A DNA stretch of 64,000 nucleotides from an uncultured Clostridia bacterium (GCA_944383245.1 CALWOU010000002.1:6417-70416); one strand, 5' to 3'. Positions 674 to 33,215 are shown, numbered from the stretch's first letter. A program made the numbers and translations. The notes: generated by a model not told the origin, from the sequence alone.

Positions 674-1828
674 ATGAAAAAGATTTTAACATTTAGTTTA
701 GTTTTAATTTTAATATTTGGAGTTTTTTTAATTCCGAGCAATGTAACAAGCGCTTATGCAAGTTCAAGTTTTGAGAGTAGCGTGGCGCACAAATCAAGTG
801 TGTTAATTGAAAAAAATTCAGGAAAAATTTTGTATGATAATAATTCAAGTGAACAACTTCCAATTGCAAGCGTTACAAAACTTATGACAATCCTTCTAAC
901 ACTCGAAAAAACCGATGCAGGCGAAATCAGTTTAACAGATAAAGTGACAGTAAGTGAAAATGCAAGCGGAATGGGAGGAAGTCAAATTTTTATAGACACA
1001 GGTTTAAGTTATGAACTTGGCGAACTATTAAAGTCCGTTATTGTTGCAAGTGCAAACGACTCAAGTGTTGCTCTCGCTGAATACATTGCAGGCAGTGAAG
1101 CAAATTTTGTTAAAATGATGAATGAACGCGCAAAAGAATTAAATCTTAAAAACACAAATTATGTTAACTGCACAGGGCTTCCAACTCCTGACGGATATTC
1201 GTGCGCCATTGATCAAGCAATAATTTTAAGCAAGGTTTTAAATTACGACACTTATCACACATATTCTTCAATTTGGCTTGAAGATTTTGTTCATCCAGAC
1301 GGTCGCACCACTCAAATGACAAACACAAATCGTCTATCTCGTTTTTATGACGGATGCATGGGCGGGAAAACAGGTTCAACAAATCAAGCAAAATATTGCC
1401 TTGCAGTTGGTGCAAAGCGCGGAGATATGGAACTCATCTCTGTTGTCCTTGGAGCAGATAACAGTAAAGAAAGATTTAAACTAGCAAGCGACTTATTAGA
1501 CTATGGTTTTAATAACTTTGAATCAAAAACAATCTTTAATAATTCCTCATTAAATGGAATGACAATTAGAATTAAAGGTATGGATAGAGTAACACACCTA
1601 AAAGCAGAACGCAATTACACACTTGTAACAGATAAAAACGAACAAGTAAACGTTTCGCTAAATTACAATCTTCCAAATATGTTAACCGAAGTGAAAGAAA
1701 ATCAGGTTGTAGGTAACGTTGAAATCATCATAGACGGGGTGGTGGTAGATAAAATCAACATATTATCCACCGAAACACACAACCCAGCCACAATTTGGGA
1801 TTACTTCAAAGAACTCACCAAGGCCTAA
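674..1828 (+). CDS. D-alanyl-D-alanine carboxypeptidase (low-MW PBP, peptidase S11)
   Basis: Signal peptide MKKILTFSLVLILIFGVFLIP. It has the SxxK (SVTKLMT), SxN (SANDS) and KTG (GKTGST) motifs. The ATG at 674 lies 5 nt after GAGG, in frame with the track ORF 668..1828. Confidence 0.9.
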   Translation: MKKILTFSLVLILIFGVFLIPSNVTSAYASSSFESSVAHKSSVLIEKNSGKILYDNNSSEQLPIASVTKLMTILLTLEKTDAGEISLTDKVTVSENASGMGGSQIFIDTGLSYELGELLKSVIVASANDSSVALAEYIAGSEANFVKMMNERAKELNLKNTNYVNCTGLPTPDGYSCAIDQAIILSKVLNYDTYHTYSSIWLEDFVHPDGRTTQMTNTNRLSRFYDGCMGGKTGSTNQAKYCLAVGAKRGDMELISVVLGADNSKERFKLASDLLDYGFNNFESKTIFNNSSLNGMTIRIKGMDRVTHLKAERNYTLVTDKNEQVNVSLNYNLPNMLTEVKENQVVGNVEIIIDGVVVDKINILSTETHNPATIWDYFKELTKA

Positions 1829-1921
1829 AATATCACAATAATTTAATTTAATAAACTAAAAAAAATAAAAATCAAAGATATTATACTAATTATGGTTTAA
1901 ATCTCAAATTTAAAATAAAAA

Positions 1922-1946
1922 ATAGCACATATTATGTGCTATTTTT
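1922..1946 (+). terminator. Rho-independent terminator after the carboxypeptidase gene, immediately left of attL
   Basis: ATAGCACAT-att-ATGTGCTAT is a 9-bp stem followed by TTTTT and preceded by an A-run, so it could work in both directions. Confidence 0.7.
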
Positions 1947-1970
1947 GGTAGTCCCAAGGGGAATCGAACC
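1946..1970. repeat. attL: displaced copy of the last 25 nt of tRNA-Glu
   Basis: It matches 7004-7028 at 25/25 positions. The flanking sequence differs on both sides. Confidence 0.85.
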
Positions 1971-2042
1971 AGAAAATATATAAAAATTTTAATTCTATAT
2001 TGTAAACAATATAGATTTTTTAATGTCCCGGCTCTATATTGT

Positions 2043-2540
2043 TTACTTATTTTTGTCTTGGTTGTTTTGTTTTTTCCCAGTTAAATATGATGTTATTGTA
2101 TCAATAGAACCTTTGTTAACATCATTAACGAATGGATAATTAGGATTTGTTGCATTTTCGTTAACTAGAAAGGTTGTATTTGTTATCTCATTGCTTGTGT
2201 TTTTAAAATGTTCTACTTTGTGATTTATTCCTTCACTTCGTATGGCTGAATAAAAATCTGCCACTCTTTGAATTTTATCATCACTTTCTTCTGCAAGTTC
2301 TTTTAACAATTGTTTTTTTAAATCACTGTGATAAAAAATATTGATAACATTACATTTTCTTCCTAGTAAATCATCAATACTAATTTGAAAAAAATCTGCT
2401 ATTTTGATTAAAGTTTCAATATTGGGTTCAGTAGTTCCGTTTTCATACCTGCTATATGATTGTTGATTCATACCTAATTTAAAAGCTATTTCACTTTGAG
2501 TTAAACCTATTTTTAAGCGATATTCTTTTAATTTTAACAT
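2043..2540 (-). CDS. XRE-family HTH repressor (cI-like) of the islet
   Basis: The N-terminus MLKLKEYRLKIGLTQSEIAFKLGMNQQSYSRYENG is a typical XRE/Cro-C1 HTH. It is transcribed divergently from the rightward genes across an operator-rich spacer. Confidence 0.85.
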   Translation of the reverse strand: MLKLKEYRLKIGLTQSEIAFKLGMNQQSYSRYENGTTEPNIETLIKIADFFQISIDDLLGRKCNVINIFYHSDLKKQLLKELAEESDDKIQRVADFYSAIRSEGINHKVEHFKNTSNEITNTTFLVNENATNPNYPFVNDVNKGSIDTITSYLTGKKQNNQDKNK

Positions 2541-2616
2541 ATTTTATATTCCTTTGTTACTTATAATATACCCTAATATTGACTATTTTACTATTTTTTT
2601 GAATATTTTTAAAAAT

Positions 2617-2696
2617 TTTACACAGTAACGGTGTAAAATGCTTGACTTTACTCTGTATTTATGTAAAATTATTAATGATACACTTAAATTGTGTTA
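2617..2696. promoter_or_regulatory. Genetic-switch region with two inverted-repeat operators flanking a rightward promoter
   Basis: TTTACAC-N7-GTGTAAA is a perfect inverted repeat at 2617-2637. The promoter is TTGACT (2642-2647), a 16-nt spacer, and TAAAAT (2664-2669). A second, imperfect inverted repeat ATACAC-N7-GTGTTA is at 2678-2696. GGTGTAAA recurs near 2991. Confidence 0.55.
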
Positions 2697-2708
2697 AAAG
2701 GAGTTTCT

Positions 2709-2945
2709 ATGAAAAAAACTATTTCAATTTCAAATTTGGACAAACAAACAAACTTTTATTATGTTTTTTGTAAAGGCGGCGTTGTTAAAATTCAAGACAA
2801 GCAACAGGCAATTAAACATCTAAAACAAAAAGAGCAATATTTTATTGTCCGCCTTTATGAAACCGTTGATGTCGATGTAAACGGCTTTGATGTTTTAAAG
2901 TGTATTTACTTCACCGGGTGTGGTATTAAACATCAAGAAATTTAA
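2709..2945 (+). CDS. Hypothetical small protein, first rightward gene of the islet
   Basis: The ATG at 2709 lies 5 nt after AAGGAG, in frame with track ORF 2691..2945. No motif was recognised. Confidence 0.55.
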   Translation: MKKTISISNLDKQTNFYYVFCKGGVVKIQDKQQAIKHLKQKEQYFIVRLYETVDVDVNGFDVLKCIYFTGCGIKHQEI

Positions 2946-3101
2946 ACAAATACAAAGTGCCAAAAATTGATAAAATTTGCGATTTAAGACGGTGTAAATT
3001 TAAAACTCGAACAATTTATCAAGCGAAGTATTTAACCCACGTTAGAATAAAAAAAACCGCCCAAAATCGCCCCAAAATGGCACTTTTAAAGGGAGTTAAA
3101 A

Positions 3102-3272
3102 ATGCGAAATTTTAAAGGTAAACAATTTTTGACGGAAAATGCGCTATTTATCGTACCAGGATATAAGCGCAAGATTGGTTATAACAACATTTGCAAACAG
3201 TGTTGTTATGATTGCAAGCAAGGTTGTAAAGTTGAATTACTTGCTTGTAAAAAGTTTAGCAATAAATGCTAA
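3102..3272 (+). CDS. Cys-rich 56-aa protein (below the ORF-track size cutoff)
   Basis: GGGAG lies 7 nt upstream of the ATG. My own translation is MRNFKGKQFLTENALFIVPGYKRKIGYNNICKQCCYDCKQGCKVELLACKKFSNKC, with 7 Cys in the last 26 residues. A 9-bp hairpin at about 3288-3316 follows it. Confidence 0.4.
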   Translation: MRNFKGKQFLTENALFIVPGYKRKIGYNNICKQCCYDCKQGCKVELLACKKFSNKC

Positions 3273-3431
3273 CGGAAGATTAGCATAAAATTTAACCGAT
3301 GTCAAGGTTAAATTTTAAAAATAATTGTTGAGAGTAATTAAAAACTCCACAATCTTTTGATTGCAGAGTTTCCGTTTGCGCGATTTGATACATATTTCAT
3401 TATATACGCAAAAACTCTCAATGTCAATTAT

Positions 3432-3466
3432 TTTTGTTTTAAAATGAGTCGCCAACAACTCAAATT
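3432..3466 (+). repeat. 35-nt islet-internal repeat, copy A
   Basis: TTTTGTTTTAAAATGAGTCGCCAACAACTCAAATT matches 5161-5195 at 34/35 positions. Here it runs into a 9-bp hairpin, CCAACAACT...AGTTGTTGG. Confidence 0.7.
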
Positions 3467-3517
3467 GTTAATTTTATAAGTTGTTGGTTATATAAAAATT
3501 TAAAAGGAGAGTTTATT

Positions 3518-3811
3518 ATGAAATTAACAAAATATCACAAAAGTTTAATAAGAAAGGCAGAAAAAGAAGCAAAGAATTATCAAAGAGAGAGATGTGACGA
3601 AAAAACGGAAATGATTATTCGCGCGGTTGAAAAAAGTGATTTTATGCGAGTATGTTTAAAAAAAGTTATGAAAGAGTTTGATTATTATGAACGTGTTTAT
3701 AGATTTTCAATTGAAGAGTGTAAAGATATTGAAAAGTTAGTTGACGATTTAATATTTAATACTTGTCTTTCAGTTTCAAGAAATAAACAAATTCACGTTG
3801 TTATGGAGTAG
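3518..3811 (+). CDS. Hypothetical protein
   Basis: 97-aa ORF with an AAGGAGAG ribosome-binding site. No motif was recognised. Confidence 0.6.
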   Translation: MKLTKYHKSLIRKAEKEAKNYQRERCDEKTEMIIRAVEKSDFMRVCLKKVMKEFDYYERVYRFSIEECKDIEKLVDDLIFNTCLSVSRNKQIHVVME

Positions 3812-3813
3812 TT

Positions 3814-4635
3814 ATGAAAGAATTAAATAATTTTGTATTCTTTCCGTCATTTTTGGAATGTGTTAAAAACGCGCCGGAAAACGAGCGCGCAGATATAGTT
3901 TATTGTATTGTTCAATATGGTATATATGGTAAAGTGCCGAAAAAGACGAGTTAAAGTTTTAAAATGATATTTCCGGCAATTAAGCCAATAATTGATGCTT
4001 CTGTTAAAAGATATAATTCACAGGTTGAAAATGGCAAAAAAGGTGGAAGACCGAAAAAAGATAAAAACCTAAATGAAACCCAAATAAAACCCAAAGATAA
4101 CCCACTTATAAGCCAAAATGAACCAAATATAAACCTAATAGAAACCCAAAAGAAAGGTAGTAATAAATTATTAAAAACCGAACAAAAACCCAACCAAAAC
4201 CTTAATAAGGAAAAGGAAAAGGATAAGGATAAGGAAAAGAATAAGGATATAAAAGAAGAACAACATCAAAAAGAAATAAATAAAGAAAAAGATTTTGATG
4301 TTGATGATGTTGATTTAGAAAAGAAAACTTTTTATTTCGAATGTTTAAATGGAAAGTTAAATAAAGTTGCTGATATTTTGGACACTAAAATTCATACGAG
4401 ATTAGAACAAATTATTTCATACATATTCGAAAAATCTTCTTTTATTGTTTCAAATGAAAAAATATCTTCTAATTTAATTTTTTCCAAAATTGTTTATTTA
4501 TTTGCCGGTACTGATGAAGAAATAGTCAACAGATTTAATGAAATATTTTTATCTATTGATAATGCTGAAAATGTTAGTAATAAACTTAACTATTCTGTAT
4601 CTACGTTATATCGTTATGCTTGTAATAATGGTTAA
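3814..4635 (+). pseudogene. Phage/plasmid-type gene (FxFxxSF...NGKKGGRPKK family) split by one in-frame TAA
   Basis: ORFs 3814..3954 (46 aa, my translation) and 3964..4635 are in the same frame and separated only by the TAA at 3952-3954. The joined product reads ...GIYGKVPKKTS*SFKMIFPAIKPIIDASVKRYNSQVENGKKGGRPKK, which looks like one continuous conserved N-terminal domain. Confidence 0.55.
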
Positions 4636-4646
4636 ATGGAGTGTTT

Positions 4647-5156
4647 ATGAATTTGTATTTGAAAGGTTTAAATTATTGTTATGTTGCTTATAGAGATGAT
4701 AAGTATAAATTTATTGAGTATGTTGCAGATACAAAAAAAGAACTAGCCAATGAATTAAAAATATCAATTAGTGCCTTATCTCATCTAATAAATCGAAAGG
4801 TGCAGTTTTCGAGAGGTCTAAAAATTGAAAGAGTTCAAATTGCTGATTTTTGTTTTGCAATTTATAAAAATATTCCAACAAATATTGACAATATTGTATT
4901 TATAACTAGAAGTTTTGACGCAATAGTTAAAAAATTTAAGATTAGTAAGATTTGTTTGTCAAAACTTTTAAAATTCTTTTTCTGCCCAAATTCGTATAAA
5001 CTGCGGGTAGATTGCAAAAAGCAATATTTTAATATCAACGATAAATATTTTGTCGGTCTTTTAGATTTGTTTGATTTAGATAGTCAAGATTTTCAAAAAG
5101 TTAATTGTAAACTTTTAAATGTTAATTATGAAGATATCGATGAAAAGTTATATTGA
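4647..5156 (+). CDS. Hypothetical protein with a probable HTH (ELANELKISISALSHLINRK)
   Basis: The ATG at 4647 follows GGAG, in frame with the track ORF 4641..5156. It contains an HTH-like segment. Confidence 0.6.
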   Translation: MNLYLKGLNYCYVAYRDDKYKFIEYVADTKKELANELKISISALSHLINRKVQFSRGLKIERVQIADFCFAIYKNIPTNIDNIVFITRSFDAIVKKFKISKICLSKLLKFFFCPNSYKLRVDCKKQYFNINDKYFVGLLDLFDLDSQDFQKVNCKLLNVNYEDIDEKLY

Positions 5157-5160
5157 CAAC

Positions 5161-5195
5161 TTTTGTTTTAAAATGAGTCGCCAATAACTCAAATT
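5161..5195 (+). repeat. 35-nt islet-internal repeat, copy B
   Basis: It matches 3432-3466 at 34/35 positions and starts 5 nt after the stop of ORF 4647..5156. Confidence 0.7.
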
Positions 5196-5274
5196 AGAGG
5201 CGAGATAAAATAAATACTAATGAATTATTTTTAAAATGGTTAAGTTAATTGACAGCGGACAAATACTAAGGGTT

Positions 5275-5316
5275 GTAAGGGCCGCGGTCCTTACGGGGTA
5301 AAGGGGCTCCCCCTTT
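5275..5316. other. Two adjacent GC-rich hairpins in the islet's non-coding block
   Basis: The first is GTAAGG-gccgcggt-CCTTAC (5275-5294). The second is AAAGGGG-ctc-CCCCTTT (5300-5316), followed by TCAACAACAAC. TCAACAACAA recurs at 5408-5417. Confidence 0.5.
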
Positions 5317-5514
5317 GTCAACAACAACTAATAAAGCCTATTTTATGTGATGAGTCTATTCATCCGAAAATTATTCGTAACCGAGATAAAGTGTAACGTG
5401 TGCTTTATCAACAACAAAAAAAGTTCGCTTAAAACTACACTAAGACGAGCGTTAGCGCAAACTAACTTTGCTTGTAATATTTAGATAATCCTAATTTTTT
5501 GCGAACAGCGTGAG

Positions 5515-5556
5515 CAGTCGGCACAATTACCTTTCTTGATGTAATTGTGCCGACTG
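5515..5556. repeat. Perfect 16-bp inverted repeat (long hairpin 1) upstream of int
   Basis: CAGTCGGCACAATTAC, a 10-nt loop, then GTAATTGTGCCGACTG, followed by AATTTTATCAAAATTG. Confidence 0.8.
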
Positions 5557-5644
5557 AGGGAATTTTATCAAAATTGCCCCTAAAAAAATTAAAAAATGCT
5601 TTCGTGCGTGCGTGGAAGCAAGAAATAAAAAAACGAACAAAGTG

Positions 5645-5686
5645 AGTTCGGCACAGTTCTCTTTTTTGATGTAATTGTGCTGACTG
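5645..5686. repeat. Degenerate second copy of the long hairpin (hairpin 2)
   Basis: AGTTCGGCACAGTTC...GTAATTGTGCTGACT has the same loop core (TTGATG) and the same trailing AATTTTATAAAAATTT. It lies 130 bp downstream of hairpin 1. Confidence 0.65.
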
Positions 5687-5751
5687 ACACAATTTTATAA
5701 AAATTTGGCAGTAAAAATATATCTTGCAATAGATAAAGAAACTAAAAAAAT

Positions 5752-6900
5752 ATGAATTTAGATAAAGATAATATTTCAAAATTACTTTCTAATTCAAAGT
5801 TTTTAGAAAGTTTAAATACATTGATTGAGTCGTTGCATACAGATAATGCGACAATTCTTTCAAACTCAAACAATTTAAAATATAAGGGAATTAAAGTTCA
5901 TAAAAACATTATTTCAAATTCATATTATGCAAGATTTCGCAAGAACGGAAAACAACATTTTGTTTCTGCTAAAACTAAAAAACAGTGTTATGAAAGGTTA
6001 AAAGACAAGTATATTCAAGTTGAAAAAGAAGAAAAGTTTAATAATAATTCAATGACTTTTATTGATTGGTATTATAAATGGCTAGACTTATATAAACTAA
6101 ACAAAGTTAAACAGGCCACTATTGAAGACTATGAAAAGTCATTAAAATATATACCGGACCATTTTAAAGAAACTAAATTTGTTTTAATCTCTGTTGAAGA
6201 TATTTTAATTGTTTTAAATTCAATAGAAAGACCAAGAACACGACAAAAAGTTTTTGAGTTAATGTCAATGATGTTTGATAAAGCAGAAAAGCACGATATT
6301 ATAACTAAAAATGTTATGTTGAGAGTTGAGAAACCGAAACACGAAAAACAAAATAGCCAATCACTAACAAAAGAACAGCAAGAAGAATTTATTTTTGTTT
6401 GTAAAAATGTTTTGCATGGCGATTATTTTCTTCTATGTTTATATCAAGGACTTAGGAAGGGCGAAGCGCTTGCTATAACCCGTGAAGATGTCGATTTTAA
6501 AAATAAAACTTTAAGAATAAACAAAAGTATAAATAAAAATAATCGTTTCGACACAACAAAGAACAAACAAAGTAATCGAATAATGCCGTTGTTTGATAAA
6601 ACAATACAAGAGTTGTTAAAATATCAAAATATACCTAGCGAAAAGCGAATTTTTAATTTTTCACCTAAAATACAACGCAAAACATTAAGTAAAATTAATG
6701 AAAAATTAGTATTTCATGTTAAAACGAAAGATTTGCGAACTACTTTTATAACTCGATGTCAAGAGAATAATATACCTGAATTTGTTATACAAAGTTGGGT
6801 AGGTCACAAAATAGGTAGTAAAGTCACAAGCTCAGTTTACACCAAACATAATCCGGAAATTGATTTTAAATATATAAATATATTTAATTCAATAATATAA
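5752..6900 (+). CDS. int: Tyrosine-type site-specific integrase
   Basis: It has GLRKGEALAI (Arg box), a KDLRTTFIT-type box and a C-terminal GHKIGSKVTSSVYTKH (His...Tyr). It sits directly next to the tRNA attachment site. Confidence 0.88.
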   Translation: MNLDKDNISKLLSNSKFLESLNTLIESLHTDNATILSNSNNLKYKGIKVHKNIISNSYYARFRKNGKQHFVSAKTKKQCYERLKDKYIQVEKEEKFNNNSMTFIDWYYKWLDLYKLNKVKQATIEDYEKSLKYIPDHFKETKFVLISVEDILIVLNSIERPRTRQKVFELMSMMFDKAEKHDIITKNVMLRVEKPKHEKQNSQSLTKEQQEEFIFVCKNVLHGDYFLLCLYQGLRKGEALAITREDVDFKNKTLRINKSINKNNRFDTTKNKQSNRIMPLFDKTIQELLKYQNIPSEKRIFNFSPKIQRKTLSKINEKLVFHVKTKDLRTTFITRCQENNIPEFVIQSWVGHKIGSKVTSSVYTKHNPEIDFKYINIFNSII

Positions 6901-6912
6901 TACTCGTGTAAT

Positions 6913-6942
6913 ACTCAACATTATTTTTATGTTGAGTTTTTT
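6913..6942 (+). terminator. Terminator after int
   Basis: ACTCAACAT-tattttt-ATGTTGAGT is followed by a T-run. Confidence 0.65.
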
Positions 6943-6969
6943 ATTTTTATAAAATCAATATCTAGTGTA

Positions 6970-7000
6970 AAAATAAAAATCTACCACTGTATGTGGTAGA
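6970..7000 (-). terminator. Element-supplied terminator downstream of tRNA-Glu
   Basis: On the minus strand, TCTACCAC-ataca-GTGGTAGA is followed by TTTTTATTTT. It occupies the position that the 1922-1946 hairpin would have held before integration. Confidence 0.6.
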
Positions 7001-7003
7001 AAA

Positions 7004-7028
7004 TGGTAGTCCCAAGGGGAATCGAACC
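7004..7028. repeat. attR: att core inside the functional tRNA-Glu 3' end
   Basis: It is identical to 1946-1970. Confidence 0.85.
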
Positions 7029-7078
7029 CCTGATCCCACCGTGAAAGGGTGGTGTCTTAACCGCTTGACCATGGGACC
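7004..7078 (-). tRNA. tRNA-Glu (anticodon UUC)
   Basis: The reverse complement folds by hand as a cloverleaf. The acceptor is GGTCCCA/TGGGACT, the anticodon stem is CCACC/GGTGG, the loop is CTTTCAC and the T-loop is GGGGTTCGATTCCCC. CCA is encoded. Confidence 0.9.
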
Positions 7079-7226
7079 ATGTCGCAACTCTCGCCATTGC
7101 TAGGGTGCTTATTTTGCCGTTTTACATTACTATGAAATGCTCGAGAATCTTAATTGTGGTTTTTATTAGTATCATCTTAAATGTGTTAAGAAGATGCGCT
7201 GGTTCTCTCCACCACCTCGCACCTTT

Positions 7227-7302
7227 TGGTGGCGATGGGTGGAATCGAACCACCGATCTATCGGGTATGAACCGATCGCTCTAACCGCTGGGCCACATCG
7301 CC
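7227..7302 (-). tRNA. tRNA with CAU anticodon (elongator Met, or Ile2 if lysidine-modified)
   Basis: The acceptor is GGCGATG/CATCGCC, the anticodon stem is ATCGG/CCGAT, the loop is TTCATAC and the T arm is GGTGG-TTCGATT-CCACC. CCA is encoded. It lacks the three G-C pairs typical of initiator tRNA. Confidence 0.88.
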
Positions 7303-7314
7303 TTATGCGAACTT

Positions 7315-7343
7315 ATTATAACGGATAAAAGAGGCATTGTCAA
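7315..7343 (-). promoter_or_regulatory. Consensus sigma-70-type promoter of the tRNA-Met/tRNA-Glu operon
   Basis: On the minus strand the elements are TTGACA, a 17-nt spacer and TATAAT. The -10 ends 12 nt before tRNA-Met. Confidence 0.75.
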
Positions 7344-7454
7344 GTTATTTTTATAAATTATTTATATTTTTTAAAAATTTTATAAAAAAAAGAAAAACTA
7401 ATCTTTTATAACTTGAAATAAAAGGCAAATTATGTTGCATACATTAGAAGATAT

Positions 7455-25536: not shown

Positions 25537-26970
25537 TTAATACGACAAACCTCCATCTATTAGATTTCGCATTTTATACTTTTGGTCTCTTATTCCTTCT
25601 AACTGTGTATCTAAATTATCTATCTTTTCCTTAAGGCGTCTTCTTTCTCTAAGCAAGGTTTCTAGTTTTGTTGTTGTTTCATCACCTAATTCTTTTGCTA
25701 TTTTCTCTTTAATACCATCACTGACATACACTTGACGTGGATTTTTAGATTCTTCCTTTATTGAATCTTCTAAATCAGCAATTTTGCTCTTTATAAAATA
25801 ATCTTCAATATCCTTACTAATTGTTGTGATTTGTTCGGTTATTTTTTCTCTATCTTTCTTTACTTTATCTTGTTGCTTTTCTAGTTGCCTCTCTTGTTTT
25901 TCTAATTCTGCCAAACTTTTATTGCGCTTTTTCCTCTTTTGCTCTTCTTGCTTTTGCTCTTCTTTCCTTTTTTGTTCAGCTTGTTTTGCTTCGGCTTTTC
26001 TTCGTTGCTCAGCTTGTTTTTCTTCGGCTTTTCTTTGTTGTTCTTTTTGCTTTTGCTCTTCTTTTCTTTGTTTTGCTTGTTCTTGTCTTTGTTGTTCTTC
26101 GGCTCGATATTTTTTCCTTTCGCTTCTATTATTTTCTGCTGCTATATATGATTCTAGTATTTCTTTTCCTTTTCCTTTAACTTTGTCAAATGCCTCTACG
26201 ATCGCTTCTGCTGCTTGACGAGTAAATCTAGCCAATGGTCTTCCTCTTTTTAATTCGATTCCTTTGTTAACATCCTCATATGCTAGACATCTAATATAAT
26301 CAAGCCCAGCAAGGTAGGCTGCCTCTTTTAGATTAGTATTAGTTCCATCAAGTTTTTGTGATATTAATTTTTTATATTCTTCGATCTTTTCAGGCAAACT
26401 TTTTTTACTTATTTTTTTAGATTTTATTTCTTGTTCAATATCTGCTCTAATAGCTTTATAACCCGTTGATGTTCTGATTCTATCGTCGCTAAGAACTCTA
26501 AAAGTATTGTCAATTATTTTTATTTCATAGAAAATATTAAAAGGCTCTGCCCTTTCTGTGCCTTCACGTTTTTTTAGTTCGGCAATTATATGATCTCTTC
26601 TAATATCTTTAGATACTATATAGCTCTTATAAACATCTCTAATTTGCTTTTCAAGGTCTGATAATTGAGTTTGCAACGCTATAGACTGATCGCCTGTTCT
26701 TATGCTACTTAAAAATGAATCATTGATTGTACCCTGTAACTCATTATATTTTTTTAGAAGGTCAGTTACTAAATCTGATTTACCTCTCTTTTCAAATTCT
26801 ATATCACTTTGAAAATAATGATGAAATTTTATAAGGTCATCAATAACCTCCATTTTTATATTTTGATATTCTTGAGAATTTTTAAATCTCTCTAACGCGT
26901 CATCATTCATAAAAACGCCATATTCGTTTATTATAATGTCTTTATCTGTAAATACCTGTTCGTTTTCCAT
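25537..26970 (-). CDS. Hypothetical protein with a long K/E/Q/R-rich repeat region
   Basis: 477-aa ORF. The central AEEQQRQEQAKQRKEEQKQKEQQRKAEEKQAEQRRKAEAKQAEQKRKEEQKQ is encoded by about 33-nt DNA repeats. No motif was recognised in the N-terminal 280 aa. Confidence 0.65.
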   Translation of the reverse strand: MENEQVFTDKDIIINEYGVFMNDDALERFKNSQEYQNIKMEVIDDLIKFHHYFQSDIEFEKRGKSDLVTDLLKKYNELQGTINDSFLSSIRTGDQSIALQTQLSDLEKQIRDVYKSYIVSKDIRRDHIIAELKKREGTERAEPFNIFYEIKIIDNTFRVLSDDRIRTSTGYKAIRADIEQEIKSKKISKKSLPEKIEEYKKLISQKLDGTNTNLKEAAYLAGLDYIRCLAYEDVNKGIELKRGRPLARFTRQAAEAIVEAFDKVKGKGKEILESYIAAENNRSERKKYRAEEQQRQEQAKQRKEEQKQKEQQRKAEEKQAEQRRKAEAKQAEQKRKEEQKQEEQKRKKRNKSLAELEKQERQLEKQQDKVKKDREKITEQITTISKDIEDYFIKSKIADLEDSIKEESKNPRQVYVSDGIKEKIAKELGDETTTKLETLLRERRRLKEKIDNLDTQLEGIRDQKYKMRNLIDGGLSY

Positions 26971-27113
26971 AGTTTCACTCCTCTTTGAATAATTCTTAAA
27001 AAAAATAATTTTTTTAATATGTTAAAATTATTTTAACACAAATTTTATTTTATAGTCAAGAAAAAACAAACATCTTTTTTTAGTAAACAATTAAATGTTT
27101 GTTTTAGTGATTT

Positions 27114-28745
27114 TTATTTGCTGTCTTTTAAGCCGACGGTTTCAAGATAGACGCGGTCGTTTTGCTTACTCAAAACGCAATCCTCAATATAATATCCATT
27201 TCTAATAAATTGCATATTGCCTTTTTGCTTTAATGCGAATGGTTCGATATATGAAACGTGTTCTTCCATTGAATTTGGGTTGATGATTTTATCTAGCATT
27301 CCGTGTTCGTAAACTTCGCCCTCTTTTAGTAGATCGTGGAATTTGCGCGTTCTAACTTTTTCAGAGTGTTTAACGCTTAGCCAATGAATTGTGCCTTTTG
27401 GTTTTATTCCTTGCTCTTTTGTGTCATACGCAATTGAACATTTTAAATAATCAATTTCACCTGCGCTATTTTTAACAACTTCATCGCACTTAATAACGTA
27501 TGCGCCCATTAAGCGCACATAGCCATTAGGTGTTAGGCGGAAAAATTTAGGAGTTGGATTTTCCATAAAATCTTCGCGTTCGATATATAGTTCGTTTGAA
27601 AATTTAACGGTGTGTTTTTTGCTTTTTTCAATTGTTGGATTGTTTGAAATCTCAACATTCTCAGTTTTGTTGCTATCGTAATTTGTTAATATAACTTTAA
27701 TAGGGTCAAGAACAGCCATAACTCGCATTGCAGTTTTATTTAGTTCTTCACGAATGCAAGCCTCTAAAATGTGTGGTTGAACAATGCTATTTGATTTTGC
27801 AACACCAATACGCGTGCAAAACTCTTTGATTGCGCTTGCAGTGTAACCTTTTCTTCTAAATCCGGCAAGGGTAGGAAGGCGAGGGTCATCCCAACCATCC
27901 ACATATCCGCCGTCCACAAGTTCGATAAAATAACGTTTTGAAATAACAGTTCCCGCGATATTCAGTCTTGCAAACTCAATCTGGCGCGGTTTAACTCCCG
28001 TTATTAACCTACAATTATCTACGAACCAATTATATAGCGGGCGGTGGTCCTCAAACTCAAGGCTACAAAGAGAGTGAGTGATTCCTTCGTGCGCGTCGCT
28101 AAGTGGGTGCGCAAAATCATACATTGGATAAATGCACCACTTGTTTCCCTGCCTGAAGTGAGGAACGTGCATAATGCGATAAATTACAGGGTCGCGCATA
28201 TTGATATTAGGGCTTGCCATATCTATTTTTGCGCGCAAAGTTTTTTCTCCGTCGGCGAATCTCCCTGCTTTCATCTCTTCAAACAAACGCAAATTTTCTT
28301 CAATTGACCTGTTTCTATATGGACTTTCTTTGCCTGGTTCGGTTAGAGTTCCGCGAGTTTGAGAGATTTCATCGGCAGAAAGTTCGCAAACATATGCTTT
28401 GCCTTGCTTGATTAAATCTATCGCACAGTCGTATAAAAAATCATAATAATCACTTGCGTAATACAAATTTTTCCACTTAAAACCAAGCCATTTAATATCG
28501 TCCATCAATGCTTTAACATAATCTTCACTTTCTTTGCTTGGATTGGTGTCGTCCATTCTAAGATTAGTGTAACCTTTAAACTTTTCAGCCGTTAAAAAGT
28601 CAATACATATTGCCTTGCAGTGACCGATATGCGTGTATCCATTAGGTTCAGGCGGAAAACGAGTGACTATCTTTTTCAATCCTTTTTCCTTAATATCTTC
28701 AACTATTGCCTGTTCAATAAAATTTGATGGTGTTATATTTTCCAT
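27114..28745 (-). CDS. glnS: Glutamine--tRNA ligase
   Basis: Class I HIGH (GYTHIGH) and KMSKS-like (VISKR) motifs. Overall GlnRS-type sequence (FPPEPNGY..., RLPTLAGFRRKG). Confidence 0.92.
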   Translation of the reverse strand: MENITPSNFIEQAIVEDIKEKGLKKIVTRFPPEPNGYTHIGHCKAICIDFLTAEKFKGYTNLRMDDTNPSKESEDYVKALMDDIKWLGFKWKNLYYASDYYDFLYDCAIDLIKQGKAYVCELSADEISQTRGTLTEPGKESPYRNRSIEENLRLFEEMKAGRFADGEKTLRAKIDMASPNINMRDPVIYRIMHVPHFRQGNKWCIYPMYDFAHPLSDAHEGITHSLCSLEFEDHRPLYNWFVDNCRLITGVKPRQIEFARLNIAGTVISKRYFIELVDGGYVDGWDDPRLPTLAGFRRKGYTASAIKEFCTRIGVAKSNSIVQPHILEACIREELNKTAMRVMAVLDPIKVILTNYDSNKTENVEISNNPTIEKSKKHTVKFSNELYIEREDFMENPTPKFFRLTPNGYVRLMGAYVIKCDEVVKNSAGEIDYLKCSIAYDTKEQGIKPKGTIHWLSVKHSEKVRTRKFHDLLKEGEVYEHGMLDKIINPNSMEEHVSYIEPFALKQKGNMQFIRNGYYIEDCVLSKQNDRVYLETVGLKDSK

Positions 28746-31070: not shown

Positions 31071-31478
31071 ATGAACAAAGTTTATTTAATTGGCAACTTA
31101 ACTCGTGACCCAGAACTTAGCAACACAACAAGCGGAGTGGCTGTTTGTAGATTGTCTATTGCTGTAGGTCGTCGTTTTGCTAATGCAGACGGTAGCCGTG
31201 ACACTGATTTCTTTAACGTAACTGCTTGGCGCGCCACTGCTGAAAATTGCGCAAGATATCTAAAAAAAGGTAGCAAAATTGCAGTTGTTGGCTCAATCCA
31301 AACAAGAAATTACGAAAGAAGTGACGGAACCAAAGGTTTTGCAATAGATATTGTGGCAGATGAAGTTGAATTTTTGTCAACTAAAAATGATGGTTCGTCT
31401 GAATCCGGCGTGACTGCAAATTCTAGCGCACCTGTTAGCGACTTGCAACCTGTGGATGACGATAGTTTGCCGTTCTAA
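31071..31478 (+). CDS. ssb: Single-stranded DNA-binding protein
   Basis: OB-fold N-terminus MNKVYLIGNLTRDPEL and an acidic C-terminal tip DDDSLPF. Confidence 0.95.
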   Translation: MNKVYLIGNLTRDPELSNTTSGVAVCRLSIAVGRRFANADGSRDTDFFNVTAWRATAENCARYLKKGSKIAVVGSIQTRNYERSDGTKGFAIDIVADEVEFLSTKNDGSSESGVTANSSAPVSDLQPVDDDSLPF

Positions 31479-31539
31479 TTTAATCATAAAACTTAATAAA
31501 ACAAACATTAATTGAATTAATAATTAAAAGGAGATAAAT

Positions 31540-31836
31540 ATGGAAGAAGTTGTAAATCAACCTGCTAATCAACCAGCAGTTGAAGAGAGCGCTAAACCTG
31601 TTGAAAAGAAAAAATTCTTTAAACACAACAAGTCAAAGAAAAAAGTTTGCGCTTTTTGTGAAGATAAAAAACCTATAGACTATAAAGACGTTAACAGACT
31701 TAAAAAGTTCGTTACAGAAAAAGGAAAAATTATTCCTTCTCGTCAAACAGGCACTTGCGCTCGTCACCAAAGAGAATTGACTGTTGCAATTAAACGCGCA
31801 AGAAATATGGCTTTGCTACCATTCAGTGGCGACTAA
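31540..31836 (+). CDS. rpsR: 30S ribosomal protein S18 (with an N-terminal extension)
   Basis: [44 protein letters not shown] is canonical S18. Confidence 0.93.
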
Positions 31837-31848
31837 TCATTAAAGTAA

Positions 31849-31889
31849 ACACTTCAAATGATGTTCATTTCATATTGAGGTGTTTTTTT
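31849..31889 (+). terminator. Terminator after rpsR
   Basis: The 9-bp stem ACACTTCAA/TTGAGGTGT is followed by T7. Confidence 0.65.
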
Positions 31890-31908
31890 GTATTTTTTAA
31901 AAAAAGTG

Positions 31909-31936
31909 TTGACATACTAAATTTTTATTATATAAT
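31909..31936 (+). promoter_or_regulatory. Promoter upstream of rdgB
   Basis: TTGACA, a 16-nt spacer and TATAAT. Confidence 0.6.
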
Positions 31937-32032
31937 GCTAGTGCGGTCACTTAATTTAGAACACAAATTGCTTCACATTTTTAGATGAGTAGTTCACACT
32001 TTTTAAACTGCAACAAGTGTAAGGAGGGGAGT

Positions 32033-32620
32033 ATGAAAGAAATTGTTATAGCATCAGGAAACGAAGGTAAAATAAAGGAAGTTCAAGAAATTTTAAAGGA
32101 CTATAAAATTGTATCAATAAAAGATTTAGGAGTGGATGTAGACGTTGAAGAAGACCAGCCAACTTTTAAATTAAATGCAATTAAAAAAGCAGAAACAATT
32201 GCTAATTTAGTTAAAGGTAAATGGTGCATAGCGGACGATTCAGGAATAGAAATAGAATCGTTAAATGGTTTTCCTGGAGTGTACACAAAAAGGTGGCTTA
32301 ATGGTACAGATAGAGAAAGGAATTTGCAAATCATAGAAAAGGTAAAAGGATTTCCTAAAAATAAAAGAAAAATAAAGTACACAACTGCAATTGCTCTTTC
32401 AAACGGAAAACACACCATTTGCGAACTTGGCACAATTAATGGATTTGTTTCAAACGAACCAAGAGGCGAAAACGGATTCGGTTTTGATGAAATTTTTGAA
32501 TTAGATAATGGCAAAACATTATCCGAACTAACCAATGAAGAAAAAAATCAAATTAGTGCAAGAAAAAAGGCGCTAGAAAAGATAAAGCAAAGTTTAATTA
32601 GCAACAAATACGAATTATAG
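32033..32620 (+). CDS. rdgB: Non-canonical purine NTP pyrophosphatase (RdgB/HAM1)
   Basis: MKEIVIASGNEGKIKE is the N-terminus, with ...DDSGIEIESLNGFPGVYTKRW further in. The ATG at 32033 follows AAGGAGGGG, in frame with the track ORF 31985. Confidence 0.88.
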   Translation: MKEIVIASGNEGKIKEVQEILKDYKIVSIKDLGVDVDVEEDQPTFKLNAIKKAETIANLVKGKWCIADDSGIEIESLNGFPGVYTKRWLNGTDRERNLQIIEKVKGFPKNKRKIKYTTAIALSNGKHTICELGTINGFVSNEPRGENGFGFDEIFELDNGKTLSELTNEEKNQISARKKALEKIKQSLISNKYEL

Positions 32621-32677
32621 AAAAGACGTAAGGACTTTCTAGCAACTAGCAAAATATGTGTCAATACAATACAAAAA

Positions 32678-32709
32678 ATCGCCATTTAGAGATTTTATGG
32701 CGATTTTTT
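32678..32709 (+). terminator. Terminator after rdgB
   Basis: ATCGCCAT...ATGGCGAT is followed by TTTTTT. Confidence 0.7.
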
Positions 32710-33215
32710 CATTATAACATAATTACAACAAATATGATTGTGAATAATAGGCAAATTAGTATTGAAACTAAACTTATTATTAAACTTGCAAGACCAATTT
32801 TGTTTTTATTTAAATGCCTTTGATAGTTTGCAAACGAAGTGCTTAAATTAGTTTTAAAAAAAATTAAATATTTTATAATGGCAAAAAAATAAAAGTTTAA
32901 AATGTTAAGTTAATAGAGTAGGCTAATTAGAAGTGTAAAAATAAGGGAGGATAAATTAATTTAAAATAAAACAAAAATTTGTACAATTAAATTAGTTCGA
33001 AGTAAAAAAAGATAGTGGTAGAAGTGAATTTAAAAAACTTCACTTTAATAATCACTATCTTTTGCTTTTATCTAATTTTTGCGACCAAAAACAATGCAAA
33101 CAATGTTGTTTAGCCGAATTTATTAAAGATTTATATTGATTTATTTAAACCTAATTAACTATTACAATTGCAATATAACCTCCAAAATGAAATTGCAGTG
33201 TGGTTAACTAGAATT

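Follow-up and report, generated by a model that had tools for sequence, protein, structure and literature searches.

How might a chromosomal element of about 5 kb, equipped with an integrase and a repressor and with no gene for a virion, travel between cells? The question is raised by a 64,000-nucleotide stretch of DNA from an uncultured Clostridia bacterium (GCA_944383245.1 CALWOU010000002.1:6417-70416; hereafter the window), which holds at a tRNA-Glu gene an element of 5,083 bp, both terminal repeats included (1946-7028; hereafter W). The window is contig 2 of a metagenome-assembled genome of Candidatus Onthoplasma (Christensenellales; 1.17 Mb, 95.6% complete), designated G000; comparison genomes and loci are designated by G and L numbers. 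We consider it probable that W is an integrative, phagemid-like satellite, which would be replicated and packaged by gokushovirus-like temperate microviruses acting as helpers. We favor this reading because W has a copied replication origin, no Rep or capsid gene, a helper-like length, and an integrase and repressor of its own. A preliminary description of the locus had proposed a satellite candidate; a satellite lifestyle is still the best reading, but the helper is likely a single-stranded DNA (ssDNA) microvirus and no tailed phage.

Probable origin hairpins shared with microviruses

W is one of at least nine collinear elements that make up a family, each of them located at tRNA-Glu. The other members are found in three further species representatives of the genus (G073, G019, and G050) and in public assemblies (L109, L110, L112, L239, and L235-L237). 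In every member, a non-coding block lies directly upstream of the integrase gene, int. About 0.6 kb of structured non-coding DNA had been reported here and left unexplained in the preliminary description; it is present, and as a microvirus intergenic copy it is the informative part of the element. In a genus-wide DNA search, positions 5493-5598 matched contig 3 of G008 at 83% identity (E 1e-25), at a place that directly precedes the VP4/Rep gene. At that locus (L063 8203-13617), direct repeats of 76 nt (93% identical) flank a 5,339-bp unit, which carries a Phage_F capsid gene (1.8e-107) beside the Rep gene (Pfam REP_ORF2-G2P, 1.2e-17), with HUH and YxxxY motifs visible in the translation; this unit is a complete gokushovirus-like prophage. 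It has no integrase, and opposite its virion genes lies a small lysogeny-like module with open reading frames (ORFs) of 109 and 89 aa, the latter with an XRE helix-turn-helix (HTH). A related prophage in G069 encodes Chlamy_scaf and Phage_ORF5, which marks these viruses as gokushovirus-like. Contig 10 of G053 (L103) holds a tandem microvirus prophage with capsid genes at 26131-27735 and 31304-32908, a spacing of 5,173 bp, and an origin hairpin in each unit; in CTXphi, it is this arrangement that allows rolling-circle release to proceed with no excision step. Of the 64 genomes of the genus, six have microvirus capsid genes.

Pairwise alignments connect individual elements with individual viruses:

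W and the G008 microvirus: 83% identity over 114 bp
G019 element and the G069 microvirus: 95% over 63 bp; guanine-cytosine (GC)-rich double hairpin, 83%
G073 element and the G053 microvirus: 85% over 137 bp; double hairpin, 90% over 49 bp
G050 element and the G053 microvirus: 84% over 165 bp, a stretch that takes in the ribosome-binding site and VP4 codons 1-24

At the G050 locus (L101 6710-6778, 8906-8977), two fragments code for the VP4 N-terminus (~24 residues), one of them directly 3' of the origin hairpin and with its ribosome-binding site intact. Judged by its sequence, the non-coding block of W has been copied from the intergenic region of gokushovirus-like Microviridae, with the following features:

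5157-5751, plus strand: non-coding block, 595 bp
5275-5294 and 5300-5316, plus strand: double GC-rich hairpins; a homologous double hairpin in G019 shows a compensatory stem change
5515-5579, plus strand: origin copy 1, with hairpin I (16-bp stem 5515-5530/5541-5556, loop CTTTCTTGAT) and hairpin II (5558-5579) of the G008-microvirus type
5648-5705, plus strand: origin copy 2, with a degenerate hairpin I (about 5651-5682) and a hairpin II of the G053-microvirus type (TGACACAATTTT...)

Hairpin I of origin copy 1 folds at -18.1 kcal/mol (z -9.3), and copy 2, an 84% identical direct repeat 130 bp downstream, has a weaker fold (-6.1 kcal/mol). The loop sequence CTTGAT matches the viral-strand origin of phiX174, CAACTTG/ATATTAATAAC, the start of which is annotated at nucleotide 4306. 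By analogy, the CTTGAT hairpin would be the nick site of VP4, with a cut predicted at CTTG/AT, that is, between 5538 and 5539 in copy 1 and between 5668 and 5669 in copy 2. The GC-rich double hairpins, which in W alone fold no better than shuffles (z -1.2), are a candidate complementary-strand origin or other microvirus cis element.

When searched as the pattern GCACARTT-N3-10-TTGATRTAAYTGTGC, the hairpin was found in more than 120 IMG/VR contigs, a lower bound. All of the 80 such contigs examined (almost all 4-5.5 kb long) encode a capsid protein and 79 encode VP4; the hairpin lies on the VP4 strand in 77 of these 79, mostly 20-450 nt upstream of VP4, and their VP4 proteins are merely 28-51% identical to that of G008. 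The pattern has no match in 400 other Clostridia genomes. Among the 64 genomes of the genus, exact matches are confined to the microvirus prophages of G008, G069, and G053 (two copies in G053) and to four tRNA-Glu elements, and within G000 the hairpin occurs in W only. Across 13 element copies and the three prophages, pairing is kept in 93% of stem cells, and both sides have changed in 10 of the 16 pairs, a result that none of 500 shuffles reached; slid controls pair at 20-43%. The loop is invariant across the elements despite synonymous divergence of 0.5-2.5. Three types of hairpin II, which follows the nick hairpin immediately on its 3' side, can be told apart, one for each of the three viruses (G008, G069, and G053), and elements with two origins often mix them: W combines the G008 type with a weaker G053 copy, L109 the G069 and G053 types, and L110 the G069 and G008 types.

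The complete copies in the family measure 5,008, 5,036, 5,076, 5,083, and 5,156 bp, or 94-100% of the helper genome length (prophages of 5,173 and 5,339 bp). The Phage_F capsid is absent from the ORFs of W and from G000, and VP4/Rep has no match in G000 and, among the relatives, matches only the 24-codon stub of G050. Compared with the ORFs of ~85 microvirus genomes, the proteins of the family have nothing in common with them except the repressor HTH, which in W resembles the 89-aa XRE protein encoded inside microvirus prophages. An exact look-up with the Rep of the G069 virus did not lead to the samples that hold elements and is neutral on helper co-occurrence.

Integration at tRNA-Glu

The junctions of W with the chromosome consist of the following features:

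1918-1946, minus strand: native terminator hairpin of the tRNA-Met/tRNA-Glu operon (terminator-like, 13-bp stem and T run), outside the left repeat
1946-1970, no strand: left attachment (att) core, a 25-bp copy of the tRNA-Glu 3' end, 100% identical to 7004-7028
6980-7000, minus strand: element-borne terminator hairpin, terminator-like on the tRNA strand, inside the right repeat and now ending the tRNA operon
7004-7078, minus strand: tRNA-Glu(UUC) (ARAGORN; Rfam tRNA, 64 bits), the 3' 25 nt of which (7004-7028) are the right att core

The repeat, TGGTAGTCCCAAGGGGAATCGAACC, is perfect, without a mismatch, and its right copy is the 3' end of tRNA-Glu(UUC), as first described; the sole other look-alike is 68% identical and lies in tRNA-Met. 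The GC content of the element is 0.23-0.30, versus 0.35-0.44 in the flanking host genes (D-Ala-D-Ala carboxypeptidase and FtsK). A consensus promoter at 7343-7315 drives transcription of tRNA-Glu together with tRNA-Met (7227-7302). The spacer between the two tRNAs (7079-7226) is 148 nt long in the window; in G051, roughly 570 nt separate the matched segments, and certain other genomes have only a few nt there. An Rfam scan of 1800-7400 returned the two tRNAs only, the rest being sub-threshold noise.

An unoccupied site, which the preliminary description had suggested looking for in relatives, is found in G051, the closest relative (flank 81% identical), where a homologous terminator hairpin directly abuts an uninterrupted tRNA-Glu. 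This arrangement fits the idea, advanced along with the two junction hairpins, that the element supplies a replacement terminator on integration: W, on inserting, has moved the native operon terminator 5 kb away from the tRNA. G051 differs further in having other material between dacA and the homologous hairpin. Beside its uninterrupted tRNA-Glu (L045 4454-4570), G051 also holds a 16-nt partial att copy (TGGTAGTCCCAAGGGG) and an inverted fragment of the tRNA 3' end, which are probably the scar of an earlier integration at this hot spot; these fragments adjoin a gene for a 313-aa multi-pass membrane protein, by eye a candidate acyltransferase.

Because collinear copies of ~5.0-5.2 kb occur at the same tRNA-Glu repeat in other species and samples, W is to be counted, as the preliminary description proposed, as a genuine integrative element, and not as a prophage remnant. 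The marks of a tRNA-targeting tyrosine-integrase island are present: an integrase beside a tRNA, a duplicated tRNA 3' end, and an unoccupied site in a relative. Perfect att repeat pairs also bound the members in G073, G050, L109, and L239; in G050, that genome's own tRNA variant is present at both ends, as expected if integration creates the duplication.

The tRNA-Glu gene is a general integration hot spot, with unrelated integrase elements in G046, G016, and G067. The one in G046 (L057 2367-17104) is a 14.7-kb element at the same 25-bp core. In G019 (L013 4877-16000), a second, unrelated integrase element uses the same core in tandem with the 5-kb one. The microvirus hairpin is absent from these two, as it is from the other integrase elements at the same tRNA-Glu. 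Tandem arrays at tRNA-Glu occur in G019 and L235-L237. The 5,088-bp L235, with the order int-core-repressor, was considered as an excised circle and rejected, since its ends overlap at only ~90% identity. Identity to W is 99% in the left part of the scaffold and ~80% in the right, and the end mismatch and mixed identity together make a tandem array of two different members more likely.

Genes carried by the element

The ORFs of W were searched against Pfam and PHROGs, and the ratio of nonsynonymous to synonymous divergence (dN/dS) was computed against relatives at synonymous divergence of 0.5-2.5. Every ORF is under purifying selection, including those of 56, 78, and 97 codons (dN/dS 0.07-0.49). 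From left to right, the genes and associated features are:

2043-2540, minus strand: XRE-family repressor, 165 aa (HTH_3 2.5e-20; phrog_8 and phrog_3, transcriptional regulator/repressor; dN/dS 0.11-0.46)
2617-2697, plus strand: switch region, with TTTACAC-N7-GTGTAAA (2617-2637), promoter TTGACT-16-TAAAAT (2642-2669), and the imperfect ATACAC-N7-GTGTTA (2678-2696)
2709-2945, plus strand: orf78 (58-62% aa identity in G019, G073, and G050; dN/dS 0.17-0.35)
3102-3272, plus strand: orf56, Cys-rich (CxxCCxDCxxGC; 68% identity in relatives; dN/dS 0.20-0.34)
3432-3466 and 5161-5195, plus strand: copies 1 and 2 of a 35-nt direct repeat, 97% identical
3518-3811, plus strand: orf97 (70% identity in G073; dN/dS 0.23-0.26)
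3814-4635, plus strand: DUF6291 gene, broken into frames 3814-3951 and 3964-4635 by an in-frame TAA at 3952-3954
4647-5156, plus strand: orf169, family-specific marker protein (11 clusters only among 5.8 billion proteins; dN/dS 0.10-0.49)
5752-6900, plus strand: tyrosine integrase, 382 aa (Pfam Phage_integrase 3.3e-11; PHROG_1 integrase 4.4e-55; 77-88% identical in the family; dN/dS 0.07-0.10)

The tyrosine integrase and the XRE repressor divergent from a rightward operon are both as previously described. The integrase gene has its own terminator at 6913-6937. The repressor consists of an N-terminal HTH followed by a ~100-aa C-terminal domain without a family match, and the rightward promoter from which its gene diverges came from a promoter scan. 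Both inverted repeats that flank this promoter were read directly off the sequence and are putative operators.

The preliminary description counted five small ORFs without capsid, lysis, primase, or helicase function. No such family is indeed found among the small ORFs, but the rightward frames number six, and two of them are one split DUF6291 gene. Nor is a conjugation or mobilization function found among the ORFs, and orf78, orf56, orf97, and orf169 have no match in either database. The orf56 product is a candidate zinc-binding protein on account of its cysteine motif. The slot of orf97 is variable, the corresponding genes of G019 and G050 showing no match to it.

The two halves of DUF6291 match profile positions 1-39 and 45-79. 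The gene is intact in G019 and G073 (called ORFs of 254-266 aa), and G019 has CAA at the position of the TAA codon. An independent assembly from another sample, L242 (99.9% identity over 3.25 kb), has the same TAA, which indicates a real, fixed nonsense mutation and no assembly error. Recoding of this codon was considered and rejected: other genes end in TAA, the gene of the relatives is intact, and G019 has CAA there. The claim that the small ORFs lack recognizable function has to be qualified for this gene, since the DUF6291 domain is often fused to replication domains in relatives: among 315 homologues, many carry DnaB_2/DnaD-like (PF07261) or Phg_2220_C (PF09524) domains. These fusions are the sole hint at a replication-related role for the ORFs of W and make the protein a candidate replication organizer or DNA-binding protein.

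AlphaFold2 models the DUF6291 protein as two helical domains with a disordered linker and orf169 as tandem beta-beta-alpha-alpha modules (predicted local distance difference test, pLDDT, 75). One weak hint from the fold of orf169, toward the DNA-binding domains of I-HmuI and I-TevI, suggests that this protein possibly binds DNA. PDB profile searches with both proteins were uninformative, and Foldseek searches of PDB with the AlphaFold2 models (pLDDT 75-76) gave no match at E <= 0.001. Among GTDB genomes, orf169 has no relatives beyond G073, G019, and G050.

The 35-nt repeats bracket the module orf97-DUF6291-orf169, and the analogous positions in G050 are occupied by the two copies of the VP4 N-terminal stub. 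The repeat has no match in microviruses, and a sequence related to it sits after orf169 in G019. The repeat pair may mark module exchange by recombination.

Possible modes of spread and known systems

Helper-dependent induction, replication, and packaging might proceed as follows. While integrated in tRNA-Glu, W would be silenced by its XRE repressor. Once a helper microvirus is active in the cell, W would be excised by its own integrase or copied straight from a tandem array. The HUH protein VP4 of the helper would nick the borrowed hairpin at the predicted CTTG/AT and roll off unit-length single-stranded circles, which, at 94-100% of helper length, should fit the small helper capsid and be packaged instead of helper DNA. 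In a new cell, the strand would be made double-stranded, possibly from the GC-rich hairpins, and the integrase would then be expressed and insert the element into tRNA-Glu. The second origin copy may give access to a second helper lineage.

Several points weigh against a microvirus satellite. All nine copies are integrated or in tandem, with no circular, single-stranded, or encapsidated form among them. The orf169 search found no relative in IMG/VR or JGI metagenomes, possibly because virus catalogues require hallmark genes. The four carrier genomes contain no microvirus capsid gene, so co-residence has to be deduced from recombination traces alone. The predicted nick site is drawn by analogy with phiX174, and no experimental work on gokushovirus origins turned up in the literature searched. 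If both tandem origins had the same specificity, rolling-circle replication should remove the 130-nt spacer between them, a difficulty that the dual-helper idea meets only ad hoc. Finally, the nonsense codon in DUF6291 and the weakened second hairpin suggest that the W copy may be partly defective.

Any reading has to accommodate the homology, distribution, size, and selection observed. There is some chance, though we think it rather small, that the microvirus region is used without packaging, either as a VP4 promoter/leader cassette that ties int to helper activity or as a decoy origin that soaks up VP4 in an anti-microvirus defense islet, with the element spreading by another route. The position of the block directly upstream of int in every member would suit such a cassette, as would the VP4 ribosome-binding site and start codon kept in G050, and the link of DUF6291 to DnaD-like domains hints at independent replication. 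Microvirus prophages, found in none of the carriers versus six other genomes of the genus, are compatible with exclusion, numbers being small. A promoter, however, needs no 16-bp covarying stem with an invariant CTTGAT loop, nor GC-rich hairpins upstream co-inherited from the same virus; a narrow size range just below the helper genome length would be left without explanation, and W carries no conjugation or mobilization function for the other route.

Two further explanations fit the data poorly. It is improbable that the block is inert origin DNA left over from a past recombination between a microvirus and an ordinary integrase islet, which would itself be a small integrative element with unknown cargo. 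The VP4 stubs of G050 do look like recombination debris, and in W the second hairpin is degenerate and the DUF6291 gene broken, but the block holds the same position in all nine members despite the synonymous divergence between them, its stems covary, and blocks from three virus lineages in different members indicate repeated acquisition and no single ancient accident. We regard as very improbable a miniature satellite of tailed phages, packaged as concatemers in a large head, to which the integrase, divergent repressor, small size, and tRNA site might otherwise point. The likeness to the phage-inducible islands of tailed phages drawn in the preliminary description does not hold, as W has no primase-replicase, terminase, or capsid-remodeling gene; a terminase small subunit, capsid-size redirection, AlpA, and a cos/pac signature are likewise absent, no part of W matches tailed-phage DNA in the genus searches, and its only phage-derived sequence is microviral.

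Satellites are known for tailed and filamentous phages, and the literature searched describes neither a microvirus satellite nor the CTTGAT hairpin; a microvirus satellite would represent a new helper class. We lean, if only slightly, toward the view that W and its relatives are the first natural satellites of Microviridae: integrase-bearing "phagemids" sized for a fixed T=1 capsid, which would hijack their helpers by a copied rolling-circle origin alone, swap or double origin modules for different helper lineages, and, like CTXphi, may release single strands from tandem arrays with no need for excision. To hijack a helper with nothing but a copied origin and a suitable length would then be the simplest such strategy known. 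Microviruses, which rank with the most abundant phages in the guts of animals, would mediate horizontal gene transfer between uncultured gut Clostridia, with ~5 kb of cargo that brings its own integrase. W is also an independent, evolution-based pointer to the predicted gokushovirus origin, and virome pipelines that require a capsid gene would systematically discard such elements.

Among known systems, the PICI (phage-inducible chromosomal island), PICMI (phage-inducible chromosomal minimalist island), and P4-like satellites exploit double-stranded DNA tailed phages via terminase or cos/pac and carry capsid-remodeling or replication genes. W resembles them in its integrase, divergent master repressor, tRNA-type site-specific integration, and inferred helper dependence. 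Compared with the PICIs of Gram-positive bacteria, W has the integrase and the divergent master repressor; it has no primase-replicase with its own origin (Pfam, PHROGs), no match to terS, cpm, or ppi, and 5.08 kb as against about 10-15 kb. The PICMIs of Vibrionaceae are similarly small; they are defined by an AlpA-type regulator, to which W has no match, and by reliance on a virulent tailed helper.

With phiX174 or f1 phagemids, a helper initiator rolls single strands off into helper capsids, and only near-unit-length DNA fits. Phagemids and phiX174-origin plasmids are like W in having the viral-strand origin of the helper and no capsid or Rep genes. Unlike laboratory phagemids, W is natural, enters the chromosome through its own tyrosine integrase, has a repressor switch, has been conserved in evolution, and draws its origin modules from several lineages of virus. 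In Vibrio, RS1 encodes the initiator RstA, uses host XerCD at dif, and has as its helper CTXphi, an inovirus without a fixed capsid size, whose tandem arrays can yield ssDNA without excision. As proposed here, W would share with RS1 the lifestyle of a satellite of an ssDNA rolling-circle phage, with repressor-controlled lysogeny and tandem arrays at one site, whereas it has no Rep, an integrase, a tRNA target, and a presumed helper with a fixed-volume icosahedral capsid. Some mobilizable genomic islands mimic the origin of transfer (oriT) of SXT/R391 conjugative elements and are transferred by mating. Like W, they are small and integrase-bearing and hold a copied cis origin recognized in trans by an HUH-type nickase of the helper; what W has copied is the replication origin of a phage, and its transfer would take place in a capsid.

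The enterogokushoviruses and the gokushovirus prophages of G008, G069, and G053 share with W the intergenic origin region, the ~5-kb size, and the host genus. They encode capsid, scaffold, VP5, and Rep and no integrase, and the gene set of W is the reverse. Of the features that define Microviridae, W lacks the capsid VP1/F and VP4/A and has the conserved CTTGAT origin hairpin in two copies. In common with phage satellites in general, the family is mobile without virion genes and bears a sequence that ties it to a helper, 83-95% identical to the microviruses of G008, G069, and G053.

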